Assembly (NCBI GenBank): GCA_964594065.1
Contig: CAZQKX010000002.1
Span: 39,909-103,908, forward strand
Length of the DNA: 64,000 nucleotides
Source of the DNA: an uncultured Pirellulales bacterium
GTDB lineage: Bacteria > Planctomycetota > Phycisphaerae > Sedimentisphaerales > Anaerohalosphaeraceae
Direction: 5' to 3'
Numbering within the stretch: the first letter of the stretch is position 1; every line of letters starts with the position of its first letter. Positions 13,100 through 19,866 of this stretch are shown one piece after another. Made by a program: the position numbers and the translations under genes. The notes under the pieces are model-generated. The model did no database searches, was not told the origin of the DNA, and saw only the letters and a list, made by a program, of their open reading frames with translations.

Positions 13100-13852
13100 T
13101 TAACGTCGTTGCGCGATAGCGCTGTTTAACGGTTGCACGAAGTTCGGAATAACCTTTTCGAACATAAGATTCTCTGCGATCTGACACTGCTCTTTATAAG
13201 CGGTGAGTGTATCAAAATCCGGTCCCGGCTGGGGGTAACGGCGAACCGTAAAATACAAACTGATGGGGTCGTCTGTTTTAAATTTTTCATTGCGGATATC
13301 GAGAGCCGTTGTGCGGGATTCGACCCCGATGCGTGCCTGCAGCCGGCAGTCCTCCGATAGCGTTACGATAGCCGATGGGCAGCAGTTGACCGGCCGCGAT
13401 CCCGGAATGTCAAATAGGGAACTGAAGCTGGAGTTGGCCAGCAGTGCCTCGGCGATCACTTCGTCGTGGTTGCCTTGATAATCAAGATCCATCGTATAAG
13501 TAATGTCCATCGAATCGATATCCAGCGGACTGACGCCGAGCATATACGGGATCAGTTCCAGTACCTGACCGTGCAGTTCGTAAGCGCTGCCGATGTCTTC
13601 CGGATTTGCACAGCCAGCGACAATGCGGTCCATCTCCAGGGCCACCCAGCGTTTGCGCTGACCTTGGTGTTCCTGCTCGAGAACATATTCACCGCTTTCC
13701 CTGCGGGCAAACCCGTTCATTTCAGGTAACTGTTTCTGCAGACGTTCAAAGAACGCCAGAATTGTCTCCCGGCTGGACGGCAGTTCCAATTGAGTGCTGA
13801 TACTCATATCGATAAACAGGTCGTCACAAAACGACCCAAAGCTATTTGACAT
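13100..13852 (-). CDS. Hypothetical cytoplasmic protein
   Basis: 250-aa ORF with coding-like composition, no TM helix or signal peptide, and no motif I recognise. Confidence 0.6.
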   Translation of the reverse strand: MSNSFGSFCDDLFIDMSISTQLELPSSRETILAFFERLQKQLPEMNGFARRESGEYVLEQEHQGQRKRWVALEMDRIVAGCANPEDIGSAYELHGQVLELIPYMLGVSPLDIDSMDITYTMDLDYQGNHDEVIAEALLANSSFSSLFDIPGSRPVNCCPSAIVTLSEDCRLQARIGVESRTTALDIRNEKFKTDDPISLYFTVRRYPQPGPDFDTLTAYKEQCQIAENLMFEKVIPNFVQPLNSAIAQRR

Positions 13853-14001: not shown

Positions 14002-16572
14002 TTATTTCTTCATATCCGGGTCAGGGAGGATGATTTCGGTGACAATCGCTCCGATTGTACAGAATATCGCTCCCGCAAAAATTCGCAAAGTCATGGGAAC
14101 TATCAGTTGAACCTGTTCTAATTGCCAGCTTTTTTCAAGATAGAATGTAGCGATGGAAAATCCTATACCAATGAAGATTCCGCAAATGCTTGCTGCCAAA
14201 ATGCGTTTTATCCGTGACAAACCGCCTGCAAACTGTGTCAATGTTCCCCCGGCAATCATTAACAGCACAGCTAAGATTGTCAGAAACGGTTTAACTGAGA
14301 TTTCAAAAAATGGTTTGATTGACATAAACCACATATTTTCTTCGGTAGGTATTGTTCCGGTTTGGGTGTAATAAAGGTAATAACTCATGGCCAAAATGCC
14401 TGCAAATATCACCGAAATCACAGGAATATGCCAAGTCTTTTCAGGCAGATTTGCACGCAGTTCGCTGATACGCTGCATACGGCGGCGGATGGTCAGCGGC
14501 CAGTTATAAAACGCGCAGAATATCCAGTGCTCAAAAAGTGCCCCGCGTTCGCCGAATACTGGTACAATATGTACTGCATCCGTTGCCCAGTGCGCTGCCA
14601 TAAACCGCGCCATGGCTGGATAACTATATGTCATCTGGATTGGAAATGCCAGATAGCCAATATATTTGAAATAACTCAAAAACAGGGCGATGTTGTAATC
14701 TTTAACGCTTCGATCTCGAATGGCCATAATAGTTGTTATAAGACCGCGCGTAAAAGAACCCGGAGAGATTGGTACAATTGCCAGAATACCCTGAATTGCC
14801 CCTGCATAAGCCAAGGCTTCCCAAAAAGTTAATTCGGGGTGATATATCCAATATATTACAGCTATTATTAATCCTACAAGTTGAGTCACGGGTATAGTTA
14901 AAAGATGTAAAACAAGTGCTATAAGATATTTCTGTATAAAGGGATCTTCAAGTTGTGAAAGAATTATTTGCGCGTCTTCATCACTGAGTATATGTTTTTT
15001 TTGACTTTGGATAACCATCTCTCGCATCCATTGCTCTCGGAGTTCGGGATGGCGTAACAGCTTATAGGGACGAATAAACAGAAAATATAGCTTATCTTTT
15101 AAAATCGTCGGATCGGTCAGGAATCGGTGCAGGCCTGCGGGTAAGATCGACAGCGGCAGATGCAGACAAAAGCCTACAACTGAATCACTGAGCCGGAGGG
15201 CTTTATCACTGTCAACGCGTCCGTCGCGGTGCCAGTTGATGAGTTTCTCGGCCATCCGCCCTTTAAAGGCCCGTTTGAAATAATCAAAGCTGGTTAAGAT
15301 ATTGCCGTAATGTTTTCGCCAATCGGCCTTGGCCCATATTTTTCGTGTTACTCTGCCGAGTATTGGAATCAAACCGAGCAGAAAGAACAGCAGCGTTTTA
15401 CATTTACAGCTTTTAAAGCTATCGATCTTGTCAGAATCGATCAGGCTGCGCGTTTGCCAGCCGGTGACAGCGCTGTCAAACAGTTGCTTATAAAGTTTGC
15501 CGTCATACAGCAGACGGACATGATTATGTGTTATGTCCGGGATGGAGTCGCGATAGATGCTTTCGCATGTTTTTAGCTCTTCCAGCATTTGCTTTCCCGC
15601 GGGCAGGGCGGCTAAAGCCTGCGGATGGTCGTTGAGGTATTGTTCCAGTGTTCCCAGATCGCCGCGGTCAAACTGAACCAGTGAGCCGCGTTTAAGCCCT
15701 TTGCCGATCAGTTTAAAATCACCCGGGCTCATTGGCAAAAACGGCAGCAGCGCCAGTCCCGCACGAAAATCGACACCGATCAAACCGGCAGTTGGGTCGT
15801 CATTGGTGTCGGTGCGTTTCAAACAGTTCGGCTGGCTTTTACAAGTAGTCCATTCATACTGTCTGGCGAATTCATGTGCTCCCAAATCGCCTAGCAGCTT
15901 GACGAATTCGGTCATGAATTGGTATTTGCTGCGATATTCCAACGACCCAAGTATATTTTCATCGACGGTTTTGCCTTTTCGCCAGCGTTTGAGCTGATCG
16001 ACACGGTCATCTACTTCCAGCCGCCATGTTCGACCCTCGACCCAGTCACTGATCTCGCCGCAGCTTCCCAGTGTCGAGTCCACAAATGTTGCGTGGATAT
16101 CGTTAATGCACTGCGGGTCGTCGAAGTGAATTTGGGCAGCAGCGCGGATAAACTTTTGCCACAGGGCTCCGGCGCGGGCCGCAGTAGGGTTGACCTGCAG
16201 TTGGAAGGGGGCCTGAAAGCCGACGGCGTAGAGAAAATTGCGAAAGAACAGCGATCCCTTTGACGGCGGGATCAATATCTTGACGGCATAGGTTTTGCCG
16301 AGTTGAAGAGCCATCCAGTTATCACAGGATTGTCCGTCGAGGGTAATTGTTAGCAGTTTGACCTTGTACACCTGTCCGGCGAAGCCGCCGCCGACAAATT
16401 TCTCGATGGCAAATCGAACTGTCGCAGTCGGCCCGGGTTCGACCGGCGTCATTTCATATTCCAACTCCGTGCCCGCATCGTAGTGCGTGATGCGCATCGG
16501 GCGGTGCAGGTTGGCTGCCTTGAAAGCCTCCTGAAGCTGTTTGCATGTTTCTATTGAATATTCAATTGCCAT
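14002..16572 (-). CDS. Atypical kinase-fold (ABC1/UbiB-like) domain fused to a polytopic membrane domain of about 10 TM helices
   Basis: 856 aa. The N-terminal part has a Gly-rich loop (KFVGGGFAGQVYKV), a VAIK-like YAVKIL, an ISDWVEGRTW hinge-like segment, SQPNCL and a DFG-like IGVDFRAG. The C-terminal about 480 aa are hydrophobic helices, including VPISPGSFTRG. Confidence 0.7.
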   Translation of the reverse strand: MAIEYSIETCKQLQEAFKAANLHRPMRITHYDAGTELEYEMTPVEPGPTATVRFAIEKFVGGGFAGQVYKVKLLTITLDGQSCDNWMALQLGKTYAVKILIPPSKGSLFFRNFLYAVGFQAPFQLQVNPTAARAGALWQKFIRAAAQIHFDDPQCINDIHATFVDSTLGSCGEISDWVEGRTWRLEVDDRVDQLKRWRKGKTVDENILGSLEYRSKYQFMTEFVKLLGDLGAHEFARQYEWTTCKSQPNCLKRTDTNDDPTAGLIGVDFRAGLALLPFLPMSPGDFKLIGKGLKRGSLVQFDRGDLGTLEQYLNDHPQALAALPAGKQMLEELKTCESIYRDSIPDITHNHVRLLYDGKLYKQLFDSAVTGWQTRSLIDSDKIDSFKSCKCKTLLFFLLGLIPILGRVTRKIWAKADWRKHYGNILTSFDYFKRAFKGRMAEKLINWHRDGRVDSDKALRLSDSVVGFCLHLPLSILPAGLHRFLTDPTILKDKLYFLFIRPYKLLRHPELREQWMREMVIQSQKKHILSDEDAQIILSQLEDPFIQKYLIALVLHLLTIPVTQLVGLIIAVIYWIYHPELTFWEALAYAGAIQGILAIVPISPGSFTRGLITTIMAIRDRSVKDYNIALFLSYFKYIGYLAFPIQMTYSYPAMARFMAAHWATDAVHIVPVFGERGALFEHWIFCAFYNWPLTIRRRMQRISELRANLPEKTWHIPVISVIFAGILAMSYYLYYTQTGTIPTEENMWFMSIKPFFEISVKPFLTILAVLLMIAGGTLTQFAGGLSRIKRILAASICGIFIGIGFSIATFYLEKSWQLEQVQLIVPMTLRIFAGAIFCTIGAIVTEIILPDPDMKK

Positions 16573-16595
16573 AAAGAATATAAAACTTCAATTTT

Positions 16596-16680
16596 AGGCC
16601 CGAAGGGCCGCCAGATAATTAGCCGGAGGCGTAAGCCTCCGGATTTTGATTGACGAACAGATTTTTAAGCCCCGAAGGGG
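16596..16680. repeat. Cluster of three short GC-rich stem-loops in the pgpA to kinase-like gene spacer
   Basis: GGCCC-gaa-GGGCC (16596-16608), CCGGAGGC-gtaa-GCCTCCGG (16622-16641) and GCCCC-gaa-GGGGC (16668-16680). Confidence 0.7.
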
Positions 16681-16735
16681 CGAAAGAAAAACACTCCCTA
16701 TTTTATCGGCGTATAAGTGCTAATCCTTAAACACT

Positions 16736-17230
16736 TTATCCGAAATAGCCCGGCAGAAGCCAATACAGGATGCCGAAGACGATGGCCGCATAGATGCCCG
16801 CCATGATGTCATCGGCCAGAACTCCGGTGCCGCGGGGCAGGTTTTCCAGCTTCTTACAGGGCCAGGGCTTGATGATGTCGAACAGCCTGAACAGCACGAA
16901 GCCGGATATGGCAGCCAACCCGACATTGCCCGGGTCCAGGATGGCGATAAACAGCATTGTCAGTGCTTGGCCCGCCACTTCGTCGGCGACGACGGTTTGT
17001 GGGTCCTTTTTGCCGGTTGATTCGATTAGCGCGGGGGTGTATTGAACGCACACCCACGCTCCGGCGATCAGCAGAAACGCCATCAGGATCGGTCCCGACG
17101 GCGGATACGGGCAATAATTCGCCACCAGCAGATACAATACGACCGGCGGCAGCGATCCCCACGTACCCGGCGCGCCCGGCAAACGTCCCAATCCAAAACA
17201 GGTTGTCAGTAGTTCTTCTTTTTTCATCAT
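16736..17230 (-). CDS. pgpA: Phosphatidylglycerophosphatase A
   Basis: GLGRLPGAPGTWGSL, ADEVAGQ and FRLFDIIKPWP motifs; 164 aa, membrane protein. Confidence 0.88.
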   Translation of the reverse strand: MMKKEELLTTCFGLGRLPGAPGTWGSLPPVVLYLLVANYCPYPPSGPILMAFLLIAGAWVCVQYTPALIESTGKKDPQTVVADEVAGQALTMLFIAILDPGNVGLAAISGFVLFRLFDIIKPWPCKKLENLPRGTGVLADDIMAGIYAAIVFGILYWLLPGYFG

Positions 17231-17409: not shown

Positions 17410-18720
17410 TTACGGCTGTTTTGCCGGTGCTTTTGGCCTTGCTGGTTTTTTCGGGACACCAATAATTTCTTTAATCTTTTCGGAACGCAGTTTTTTCAGC
17501 TCATCGGTCAAATCGCTTTCCCGCAGCATGTATTCAATGTAATATTTGCCGCCGTCCATAGGGATGCTGATCTTGCCGACATATGGGCCGCTGTCTTTGG
17601 ATGATGAGCGTGAGGATATTGAACTTCTTGATGAGGCTGGCATCATCATTGTTCCTGTTGCTGCCGGTTTTGGCGCACGAGGCTTCTGGGGTTGAACTTT
17701 ATCGACAATAATGAAAGAATTTCCTCTATGACTATAGGAAAACTTTGCCATATTTGCAATTTTCCCCATCGCCTGCCTTGCTGTTACATTATGCATGGAA
17801 ATCGTCCACTTTTCTTCAAGATCCTGTAATGCCTCTTTATGTTTCGCAAATTCAAGTCCTGCACGATTGGATAACGATTGAAAAATATCAAGCAGTGATT
17901 GATCTTCAAAGCTGATGTCAATTAATTGACTCTGTCTTAATTCCTTCATCTTAGAATAGTGGACAACTTGAATTTCCGGTATTTGGTTTGGCAGGTCAAT
18001 TGCCGGGATGTGCCATTCGGCAGGATTATCTCTCATTTCAATGCTTCTGAGTAACTGAGGGACCGTTACAGGCGTCGGAAGCGGGTATTCTTTCAGTTCG
18101 TCTCCATCGTCATCCGGTGGGAGCAACGATTCATAGATTGGTTCTCCTTGTTCATTCTTCCCAAATTGTATATCCTTTTCACCAATTAACATTCGAAAGC
18201 TATCATTGAGACATTCCTGGACATCCTCTATCGGCGAGACAAATACATCCTGACCTAAGGCCGTATTGATTGTCGCAGACACATTATCTGTAATATAGAG
18301 CGTAATGGGATTTGTGTAGAGGGCTTTAAGAACTTGCAATTGTCGTGTCGAGGGTCTGCCGATGATGTGATCCAGTTCCGGGCGGGGATAGATGACAATT
18401 TCATCGGCACCCATGGCATAGCGCATGAAAAACTCGTTCAGCATCTGTGTCAGGCTTTCGGAAGCAGGGCCTTTTAATGTTACCGACAGGCGGGTTGATC
18501 TTCCATAAGGCAGTTTCCATTCGGCTTCGCCGGAGATGCGAATTGGTACGTCGATCTCTTTGCTGATTTTGTCGAGCGCCTCAGTAATCATGACGTCATT
18601 TAAGCTTATCTTAATGTCCTTGTTCAGCTTTTCTCCGACAGAAAGTTCTTTGGCCATCGCGGGAATAGCGATAATTGCTGTTAATAAAACCAATAGCGCC
18701 AGTGTTTTCTTTGTGTTCAT
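17410..18720 (-). CDS. Hypothetical secreted protein downstream of an ECF sigma/anti-sigma pair
   Basis: 436 aa with a signal peptide (LALLVLLTAIIAIPAMA), a Ser-rich linker and a basic Pro/Lys tail. It is co-directional and close to the anti-sigma gene. Confidence 0.65.
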   Translation of the reverse strand: MNTKKTLALLVLLTAIIAIPAMAKELSVGEKLNKDIKISLNDVMITEALDKISKEIDVPIRISGEAEWKLPYGRSTRLSVTLKGPASESLTQMLNEFFMRYAMGADEIVIYPRPELDHIIGRPSTRQLQVLKALYTNPITLYITDNVSATINTALGQDVFVSPIEDVQECLNDSFRMLIGEKDIQFGKNEQGEPIYESLLPPDDDGDELKEYPLPTPVTVPQLLRSIEMRDNPAEWHIPAIDLPNQIPEIQVVHYSKMKELRQSQLIDISFEDQSLLDIFQSLSNRAGLEFAKHKEALQDLEEKWTISMHNVTARQAMGKIANMAKFSYSHRGNSFIIVDKVQPQKPRAPKPAATGTMMMPASSRSSISSRSSSKDSGPYVGKISIPMDGGKYYIEYMLRESDLTDELKKLRSEKIKEIIGVPKKPARPKAPAKQP

Positions 18721-18757
18721 TTTTGTCTTCCTTTTATTCTAAGATGTTCATTTTGTT

Positions 18758-19303
18758 TTATAGTAAGCAGGCAAGCTCATTTTCAGCATCTGTTCCGTTC
18801 TCTGACATATCGGATTCGGGCGCAAACATCATGACCCATGAAGGGCGTGAGGAGGTTTTCTTTTCACGCCCGTTTTGGTCGATGATCGTTATCTCACATT
18901 GGGCAACGGGACGATCGACCCGGCTAAAACGAACCTGCGTTTTCATTTGTGAAGGCATAATGACGATTGCTGAGGTTGCATCCGCGGCATTTTTAATACT
19001 CGTTTCGGCAACATTGTTGTGTTCGGTCCATTGTACGGCGGCATGCCGGCCCGGAGCCAGCGGGATCGGTTGGGCTTTTTTATGATTGAAGATGAAAATG
19101 GCAAGAAGCAGCACTGCCGCCGTAGAAATGCCAACAGCAGTTCGTAGCCATTGTTTCTCTGCCAGAGGAATGTTGCTGCGGTTTTGGGCCTGATCCAGCC
19201 GAGTTTGTATGCGATTGTGCAGTCGATCCCAATCGACCATCGAAAGCTGCCGGTCCGTATGCTCGTCGATGAGCCGATCGATATTTTCCAGGTTCTCGTT
19301 CAT
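18758..19303 (-). CDS. Anti-sigma factor-like single-pass membrane protein
   Basis: My preferred start is the ATG at 19303 (MNENLENIDRL...), giving an ATGA 4-nt overlap with the sigma gene stop. There is one TM helix (AVGISTAAVLLLAIFIF). The track start at 19360 would overlap the sigma gene by 61 nt. Confidence 0.65.
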   Translation of the reverse strand: MNENLENIDRLIDEHTDRQLSMVDWDRLHNRIQTRLDQAQNRSNIPLAEKQWLRTAVGISTAAVLLLAIFIFNHKKAQPIPLAPGRHAAVQWTEHNNVAETSIKNAADATSAIVIMPSQMKTQVRFSRVDRPVAQCEITIIDQNGREKKTSSRPSWVMMFAPESDMSENGTDAENELACLL

Positions 19304-19866
19304 TGGATATAATCTTTCAACAACACTTTCAGTTTTATGCGTGCCTGGTACACATGCCATCGTGCCGCTTCGGGCGTGCAGCCCAGCACCTCGGCCACTT
19401 CTTTATGCGACAATTCTTCAATTCCAAAAAGCCCGATCGCCCGGGTTTGCGTTTTTGTCAGCTTGCCCATCGCCGATCGTATGGCCGACTGAAGTTCCTT
19501 CGTATCGATGACATTGTCATGATGATTCGACGGTGCCCGATCGGCGGCTCTTTGAAACAGTTGCTTTCTTCTTACAGCGGATCGTTGGCGGTCGATGGCA
19601 GCATTGATAATGATCCGAAGCAGCCAGGGGCCGAATTTTTCCGGGGTCTTCAGTTTTTTAATTTTCAAATACGCCGTAACGAATCCATCCTGTACGGCTT
19701 CGTCCGCTTCGTCCGCATCGGCCAGGATTCTTGTCGCCGTTTTCATCGCACAGACCTGATACCGCTTGACGAGTGAATCGAACGCACCTCTGTCACCCAC
19801 CTGGCTTTGTTTAACCAGGTCCGGGATCGTATCCTCAAGGTTGATCGTATCTAAGGCCTTATTCAC
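19300..19866 (-). CDS. RNA polymerase sigma-70 factor, ECF subfamily
   Basis: Region 2 (FDSLVKRYQVCAMKTATRIL...DAVQDGFVTAY) and a region 4 HTH (ELSHKEVAEVLGCTPEAARWHVYQARIKL). GTG start with a GAGGA Shine-Dalgarno sequence. Confidence 0.85.
   Translation of the reverse strand: MNKALDTINLEDTIPDLVKQSQVGDRGAFDSLVKRYQVCAMKTATRILADADEADEAVQDGFVTAYLKIKKLKTPEKFGPWLLRIIINAAIDRQRSAVRRKQLFQRAADRAPSNHHDNVIDTKELQSAIRSAMGKLTKTQTRAIGLFGIEELSHKEVAEVLGCTPEAARWHVYQARIKLKVLLKDYIQ

Follow-up and report, generated by a model that had tools for sequence, protein, structure and literature searches.

A conserved, unnamed bacterial membrane protein with a kinase-shaped domain lacking the usual catalytic residue and a membrane domain unlike any solved structure

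The Gene and Its Family

The window analyzed here is the whole stretch of 64,000 nucleotides from an uncultured planctomycete (assembly GCA_964594065.1, contig CAZQKX010000002.1, positions 39,909 to 103,908). The gene in question, here called the target gene, occupies 14002..16572 of the window on the minus strand; its domains and motifs, the spacer upstream of it, pgpA, and orf250 lie on the same strand. According to the open reading frame (ORF) list and its translation, the ORF is intact and encodes a kinase-like, polytopic membrane protein of 856 amino acids (P0001). In this conserved, unnamed bacterial protein, a kinase-shaped domain without the usual catalytic residue is joined to a membrane domain that resembles no solved structure. 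The partner gene pgpA, which encodes phosphatidylglycerophosphatase A, is located upstream at 16736..17230 and was identified using PF04608 with an E-value of 6e-39. The genes orf250, orf151, purA, uppS, and cdsA follow in turn on the downstream side; the first-pass annotation of the window had correctly placed pgpA upstream and cdsA and uppS downstream.

More than 3000 full-length homologs were obtained from a search of 5.8 billion proteins. Nearly all of these are 830–865 residues in length, and all are named "hypothetical" and carry no Pfam domain. The gene was also located at a minimum of 568 loci, in at least 568 species genomes, by a scan of species-representative genomes. Because of these homologs and genomes, a fusion of two ORFs that exists in this assembly only is excluded. 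The sequence motifs quoted in the first-pass annotation were all found in the expected order: GGGFAGQVY at residues 61–69, YAVKIL at 95–100, ISDWVEGRTW at 174–183, GAHEF at 231–235, SQPNCL at 246–251, VDFRAG at 267–272, and VPISPGSFTRG at 600–610. The motifs of the target are invariant across 42 full-length homologs with identities of 52–81%.

Pfam, NCBIfam, and the PDB sequences were searched using the single protein, each of the 42 members, and the 42-sequence family profile, and no match was obtained. When 1.84 billion representatives were searched exhaustively using hmmsearch and the family profile, only 568 proteins were returned at E ≤ 1e-3. These are the family itself and its fragments, and no spill-over to kinases or to any other family was detected. 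When each half of the protein was searched alone for other architectures, only truncated ORFs of the same family on short contigs were found. The family is closed and unannotated. No description of it was found in the literature searched, two recent surveys of kinase-like and pseudokinase families in bacteria omit it, and no paper was found there that combines "pseudokinase" with "phosphatidylglycerophosphatase".

The target gene is present in 4 of the 201 genomes sampled across the phylum and in 53 of the 201 sampled across the class. All sampled genomes of the source's own genus carry it, and it is present in a complete genome of that genus on a single contig (G329). The family is mostly from Phycisphaerae and appears in metagenome-assembled genomes (MAGs) of Kiritimatiellia as well. 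One member from a Planctomycetota MAG (P0383, 1216 residues) has an additional C-terminal extension of ~500 residues with no Pfam match. Full-length homologs of 52–53% identity are also found on contigs labeled Desulfobacterota, delta proteobacterium, or Chitinivibrionales (L084, L092, L093, L106, L114, and L066). At L084, L093, L106, and L114 the neighbors are unrelated housekeeping genes (phosphomannomutase-like and RtcB-like), and pgpA is not nearby. The homologs with these labels reflect either lateral transfer or mis-binning.

The Kinase-Like N-Terminal Domain

Residues ~30–345 (15538..16485) form a protein-kinase-like domain, placed in the cytoplasm, which was delimited using AlphaFold2 (AF2), Foldseek, and hhalign. 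The AF2 model was built from a 42-sequence alignment and has a mean predicted local distance difference test value (pLDDT) of 80.6 and a predicted template modeling score of 0.74. The kinase-like domain has pLDDT values mostly of 80–95. In the model, a β-rich lobe (strands at 36–100) is followed by helices, two further strands (159–176), and a helical lobe. When the domain was compared with the PDB using Foldseek, protein kinases accounted for 50 of the 50 top matches (including Mps1 5ntt, GSK3 8vmg, JAK2/3, AAK1, CK2, Nek2, and EGFR). The probabilities reach 0.99, the E-values range from 8e-3 to 0.24, and the template modeling scores, normalized to the matched PDB entry (the Foldseek target), are 0.23–0.36.

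The family profile was aligned with the Ser/Thr kinases of the same clade using hhalign, and the Gly loop, the AxK lysine, and the hinge are in register. A profile of 27 divergent members (25–59% identity), which is also the set used for all residue conservation given below unless stated otherwise, aligns with Ser/Thr kinases over the Gly-loop/AxK segment with a probability of 82% and an E-value of 1e-5. Only the N-lobe aligns in this way; for the C-lobe, hhalign gave no sequence alignment to kinases. The Pkinase hidden Markov model (HMM; PF00069) does not match the target, the HRD and APE motifs are missing, and there is no activation segment. The kinase-like fold that the first-pass annotation had proposed for the N-terminal domain is upheld by the two lobes of the AF2 model, the Foldseek matches, and the hhalign result, although the scores are weak.

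The Gly-rich loop GGGFAGQVY (16366..16392) fits the pattern GxGxxGxV and aligns with the Gly loop of kinases. Residues G61, G63, and V68 are invariant, and A65, Q67, and Y69 are conserved in at least 90% of the members. The segment YAVKIL (16273..16290) carries the β3 lysine of the AxK motif, K98, and aligns with the VAxK segment of Ser/Thr kinases; A96 is invariant and K98 is conserved at ≥90%. The hinge-like segment ISDWVEGRTW (16024..16053) aligns with the kinase hinge "vMEyveGgtL", and its residues W177, G180, and R181 are each conserved at ≥90%. The DFG-equivalent VDFRAG (15757..15774) was assigned by its position and order after N249. In this segment D268 and G272 are invariant and R270 is conserved at ≥90%.

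The catalytic Asp is found five residues before the Asn in eukaryotic protein kinases (ePK) and in APH, RIO, and ABC1 kinases. The equivalent of the catalytic loop in the target is ARQYEWTTCKSQPNCLKR at residues 236–253 (15814..15867), in which N249 is retained and Cys244 appears at the place of the catalytic Asp (N minus 5). Residues R237, Q238, W241, and N249 are invariant, and T243, S246, and Q247 are conserved at ≥90%. Position 244 is Cys in the target and C, W, M, G, L, F, or V in the other members, but never Asp; the AF2 pLDDT is low at 242–246. The first-pass annotation had proposed that the catalytic HxD is replaced, with GAHEF at its site. The loss of the residue stands, as no member has a catalytic Asp. 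The placement does not, as GAHEF, which is the end of a helix, is unconserved in distant members, and the true equivalent is W241-x-T243-x-x-S246-Q247-x-N249.

The distance from N249 to D268 is 19 residues, and their order is that of kinases. By position, and not by an alignment of the C-lobe, N249 and D268 would correspond to the metal-binding Asn and the Asp of DFG. The N-terminal domain is a separate branch of the kinase-like superfamily in which the nucleotide and metal residues are kept and the catalytic base is missing throughout. Judged from these motifs, the kinase-like domain probably binds ATP.

The Membrane Half

The membrane layout was derived from hydropathy (single sequence and family average) and from the AF2 helices. 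It contains roughly 10 transmembrane (TM) helices, in agreement with the number in the first-pass annotation, plus one short hairpin. The architecture is fused and unusual, as had been claimed. However, ~130 residues (415–543) of what was taken as the membrane half are a basic and probably cytoplasmic helical region.

The short hydrophobic hairpin at residues 390–414 (15331..15405; GLIPILG) is probably a re-entrant membrane anchor. Its hydropathy peaks at 391–409, two short helices appear in the AF2 model, and P403 is invariant. The basic helical region at 415–543 (14944..15330) has a K+R content of 23.8 versus 13.8 for D+E, and its AF2 helices have a pLDDT of ~90. The conserved membrane core at 544–712 (14437..14943) consists of ~6 helices and is found in all family members, including the forms of 680–770 residues. 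The six core helices (544–695) are moderately to highly hydrophobic and are followed by a strongly basic loop at 696–714 and by four very hydrophobic helices at 715–848. By the parity of the positive-inside rule, the basic regions at 410–543 and 696–714 would fit a cytoplasmic location of the kinase-like domain.

The motifs of the core are VPISPGSFTRG, GYLAFPIQM, VPVFGERGAL, and YNWPLTIRRRM. Among the conserved residues are P601 and P604 (each at ≥90%), R609, G674, G677, E681, and P692, which fall in the patterns P601-x-S-P604-G-S-x-x-R609, P671-x-F-G674-x-x-G677-x-x-x-E681, and YNxP692. The AF2 model of residues 376–856 has a pLDDT of 85.5. When this half was compared with the PDB using Foldseek, no significant fold match was obtained; the best E-value is 0.26, and MprF is outside the top 50. 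Four-helix echoes of FtsX, LolC, and HrtB (E 1.2–6) were dismissed as a generic likeness of helix bundles. A match of profile A3 positions 516–649 with 6cc4_A (E 0.008) was rejected as an artifact of the construct junction. The entry 6cc4 is a BRIL-MurJ chimera, and the family segment "IQKYLxSLA" fits the artificial junction "IQKYLKSLA" between "...AYIQKYL" of BRIL (cytochrome b562) and "KSLAAV..." of MurJ. Chimeric crystallization constructs can yield false matches of this kind in PDB searches.

The C-terminal module at residues 713–856 (14005..14436) contains the last four TM helices. Many full-length relatives of 680–770 residues stop at profile position ~700, and the last four TM helices are thus accessory. 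The possibility that this module is a degenerate PgpA was ruled out, as hhalign gives a probability of 0.1%, there is no Pfam match, and the PgpA motifs are lacking.

Linkage to PgpA, Proposed Role, and Known Systems

PgpA is the enzyme that completes the synthesis of phosphatidylglycerol (PG). Of the related loci, 74 include sufficient upstream sequence; in 62 of these, pgpA is co-directional and lies directly upstream of the target gene at ≤500 bp, and the median gap is ~55 bp. In the fusion proteins P0370 (890 residues) and P0381 (876 residues), a PgpA domain (Pfam E-values of 1e-25 and 2e-15, respectively) follows the core in place of the four-TM tail. In one taxonomic family (f91), the sole copy of pgpA shares an open frame of 863–965 residues with the core in at least 11 genomes. 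In another (f90), pgpA and the target gene are adjacent and convergent. The locus of a relative with 42% identity (P0369) has the order PgsA-type CDP-alcohol phosphatidyltransferase, PgpA, and target; on the downstream side, cdsA, uppS, and purA are convergent with it. All 53 target-positive genomes of the class contain pgpA, versus 161 of the 201 genomes overall.

The lipid link of the first-pass annotation is much strengthened by the PgpA synteny, the fusions, and the pgsA-pgpA-target operon. Its other part, which relied on uppS and cdsA, is weak evidence for function; purA and two ORFs lie in between, and the cluster is a common housekeeping one. The soluble protein of 250 residues encoded by orf250 (13100–13852), which is often directly downstream of the target gene and has no match in Pfam, NCBIfam, or the PDB, was rejected as an obligate partner. 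It is found in 130 of the 201 class genomes versus 53 for the target, also in genomes without the target, and is adjacent in 35 of 68 loci. A replacement of PgsA by the target was ruled out, as four CDP-alcohol phosphatidyltransferases are encoded elsewhere in the genome.

The spacer between pgpA and the target gene (16573..16735) is 163 nucleotides long versus the median of ~55 in relatives. It contains three tight GC hairpins with UUC(G)/UUAC loops, and its predicted RNA fold has an energy of –51.2 kcal/mol (z = –3.4). On the coding strand of this spacer, no terminator-like or promoter-like site was found, and no U-run follows any hairpin. Further upstream, a block that encodes an extracytoplasmic function (ECF) sigma factor, an anti-sigma factor, and a secreted protein of 436 residues (17410–19866) lies between dgt and pgpA. 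None of the 80 related loci contains this block, and in them dgt and HIT immediately precede pgpA; the block appears to be a lineage-specific insertion in a conserved cluster.

Other arrangements were observed in relatives without the full gene. In one genome of the same taxonomic family (G273), a protein of 250 residues (L173:6353-7105) corresponds to residues 432–488 of the target joined to the four-TM tail (715–849). Its stop codon overlaps the start of pgpA (ATGA), and the mini-protein is present in three genomes of one genus (G273, G280, and G385). The PgpA of G273 (L173:7105-8433) carries, fused at its C-terminus, an undecaprenyl-diphosphatase domain of the UppP/BacA-like type with the motif EFLPVSSEGH, so that two lipid phosphatases are contained within one protein. 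The pgpA open frames of many target-lacking relatives are 450–490 residues long, which suggests the same UppP/BacA-like fusion.

It is proposed that the target works with PgpA at the last step of PG synthesis. The membrane core would change its conformation when the pseudokinase-like domain binds a nucleotide and possibly hydrolyzes it slowly. This core would bind an anionic lipid, either phosphatidylglycerophosphate (PGP) or PG, via its invariant Arg and Glu residues. It may then pass the substrate or product to or from PgpA, or move PG within or across the membrane. The C-terminal four-TM module is a candidate docking site for PgpA because PgpA itself takes its place in the fusions. The fold class, the residues, the anatomy, the closed family, and the PgpA linkage, taken together with a role in the PG pathway beside PgpA, are held with moderate confidence. 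The specific mechanism of translocation or hand-over is, by itself, a tentative suggestion. A nucleotide-gated phospholipid machine of a new kind is more doubtful. Here an ATP switch of the pseudokinase type would drive a membrane domain with a novel fold, and this domain would receive PG or PGP from PgpA, or deliver it there, and translocate or distribute the lipid. Equally doubtful is the view of such a machine as a bacterial flippase for glycerophospholipids or a "metabolon organiser" with no relation to MprF/PplT, ABC transporters, or P4-ATPases.

Several observations weigh against this proposal. No conserved αC Glu partner for K98 was found among the family members. The Foldseek scores are weak, the C-lobe is unaligned, and it is the motifs that suggest nucleotide binding. 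The pattern RQxxWxTxxSQxN is very strongly conserved and resembles an active site more than a passive switch. As the membrane core has no structural relative, it is the genomic context that points to lipid handling. Most of the pgpA-containing genomes among the 201 of the class are without the target, and PgpA activity as such thus does not need it. Neither pgpA adjacency nor lipid neighbors were found in Kiritimatiellia, in the most divergent members, or at 12 of the 74 close loci; several of these close loci carry the Desulfobacterota label and are surrounded by unrelated housekeeping genes. A single order contributes a large share of the co-directional synteny, which is in part inherited.

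Two rivals to this proposal concern the ancestry of the protein. That it is a divergent ABC1/UbiB-family kinase with an enlarged membrane anchor is extremely improbable. The GQV(Y/H) signature of its Gly loop resembles the A-rich loop of ABC1, both proteins are membrane-associated, and both occur in a lipid-related context. With hhalign, 30 columns of the post-DFG helix at residues 281–311 (15640..15732; MSPGDFKLIGKGLKRGSLVQFDRGDL) align with "IVGGEATKLVQGLERAHVVDDDTDL" of ABC1 (70%, E 4e-5), correctly placed after DFG, against a comparator alignment of low diversity; this helix is the sole ABC1-like segment, and ePK against ABC1 gave 97% as a control. The Pfam ABC1 HMM (PF03109) does not match the target at E ≤ 10, yet in the same genome it finds four Ser/Thr kinases and a canonical UbiB (E 4e-73) of 564 residues with FHCDPHPGN and DFGQVG, to which the target has no similarity by BLASTP. 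No KxGQ motif is present anywhere in the target, there is no N-terminal KxGQ domain (~50 residues precede the Gly loop), and HxDxHxGN is missing, with TTCKSQPN in the loop. The N-lobe aligns with Ser/Thr kinases instead, and the family-profile search reaches no ABC1 protein. The specific ABC1/UbiB affinity given in the first-pass annotation is not borne out and membership in ABC1 is not supported; the C-lobe may be loosely akin to ABC1. The other rival makes the membrane domain a remote homolog of UPF0104/PplT (the MprF flippase) that would flip PG, in parallel with actinobacterial kinase-PplT fusions. Fusions of protein kinases with PplT, and two-hybrid interactions of Escherichia coli PplT with PgpA, PgpB, and PgpC, are reported in a preprint (10.1101/2022.03.11.483950). 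When 30 PF03706 proteins of this class were compared with the target using hhalign, only the PISPGS turn of VPISPGSFTRG was paired with the motif "PitPgG.G..E", with a probability of 0.4–1.5%. PISPGSFTRG aligns with the turn P-x-x-P-G-G-x-G-x-x-E, and an Arg is found in the target where PF03706 has Glu. A six-frame search of the source genome with the PF03706 HMM matched a separate canonical gene and not the target, and the Foldseek search returned no MprF. This ancestry is very improbable, and what remains of the UPF0104/MprF likeness noted in the first-pass annotation is a resemblance of motifs.

The main rival concerns function and is an active atypical enzyme, in which the kinase-like domain and the core would draw on ATP for the phosphorylation, adenylylation, or some other modification of a lipid. 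The candidate substrates are PG, PGP, phosphatidate, or polyprenyl phosphate, made or consumed beside PgpA, and a phosphate or carboxylate acceptor would need no general base. The conservation of K98, N249, D268, the Gly loop, and R237-Q238-x-x-W241-x-T243-x-x-S246-Q247-x-N249 is like that of an active site, the many conserved Arg residues (R111, R237, R270, R341, R419, R512, and R609) suit an anionic substrate, and the gene is found behind two consecutive enzymes of the PG pathway (P0369) and fused to a lipid phosphatase. Other enzymes with a kinase fold, such as SelO and SidJ, carry out chemistry other than that of kinases. However, nearly all active kinase-like enzymes retain the catalytic Asp, and here a hydrophobic residue that varies between members takes its place. 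A futile cycle would result if a kinase were fused to a phosphatase that acts on the same lipid, and we know of no product lipid that needs such a step. This enzyme is considered unlikely. It is improbable that the protein is a pseudokinase for signaling or scaffolding that takes no direct part in lipid metabolism and that its pgpA neighborhood is inherited synteny. This reading would account for the members without lipid neighbors, for the 12 close loci without upstream pgpA, and for the prevalence of one order in the co-directional synteny. Against it stand three arrangements in different taxonomic families (co-directional genes, convergent genes, and an in-frame fusion that contains the sole pgpA), the pgsA-pgpA-target operon, and the co-occurrence with pgpA in 53 of 53 genomes. 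A fusion with the only PgpA of a genome is hard to explain without a shared function.

A role of the target beside PgpA would bear on how new glycerophospholipids are moved between and within bacterial membranes. This is a long-standing question, and to our knowledge the responsible proteins are largely unknown beyond the MprF/PplT candidates. The target family is a concrete, testable candidate for such movement. Three independent gene arrangements, one of them a fusion with the only PgpA of the genome, connect it with the enzyme that acts last in PG synthesis. Two of its features are of independent interest: a kinase-like branch that has the residues of the ATP site but never the catalytic base, and a membrane core without a solved relative. 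Because the family is missing from Pfam and NCBIfam, its members are labeled "hypothetical", or in the fusions are mislabeled as plain PgpA, across hundreds of genomes.

The closest solved folds are those of the Hanks-type Ser/Thr kinases and nucleotide-binding pseudokinases (PF00069), which also provide the best profile match (82%). The bilobal fold, GxGxxGxV, AxK, the E/G pattern of the hinge, and the Asn and DF(G)-type Asp at the expected spacing are shared with them. The target family differs in that the HRD Asp, APE, the activation segment, a conserved αC Glu, and a match to the Pkinase HMM are lacking and that the kinase-like domain is joined to a domain of ~10 TM helices. With ABC1/UbiB (COQ8 and UbiB; PF03109) it shares a membrane-attached kinase-like fold, a GQV(H/Y) phosphate loop, and the short post-DFG helix, together with the ATP-dependent lipid handling that has been proposed. 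In contrast to these proteins, it has no KxGQ domain, no HxDxHxGN, and no HMM match, it has ~10 TM helices rather than 1–2, and its genome already encodes a UbiB.

In MviN of Mycobacterium tuberculosis, a polytopic membrane protein of the lipid-transport type is likewise combined with a cytoplasmic kinase fold that lacks catalytic residues. MviN is a fusion of the lipid II flippase MurJ with a pseudokinase domain of the ActPs3 family; this domain is located at the C-terminus and no longer binds ATP (VALT, no DFG) (PMC12599244). The target family differs in retaining the residues for ATP and metal, and the membrane domains are unrelated. PgpA (PF04608) is both partner and fusion partner of the target, and both are polytopic inner-membrane modules with small loops, although the four-TM tail of the target is not PgpA-like and lacks the PgpA motifs. 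In MprF/PplT (UPF0104, PF03706) a lipid-synthesis enzyme is coupled to a membrane domain that handles its product, and a PxxPGxxG-like turn is present, but no homology to the target was detected by HMM, profile-profile, or fold search. For the mechanism, the closest analogies may be found in MprF, where synthase and flippase are coupled, and in UbiB/COQ8, for which an ATP-dependent role in the handling of lipids has been proposed.

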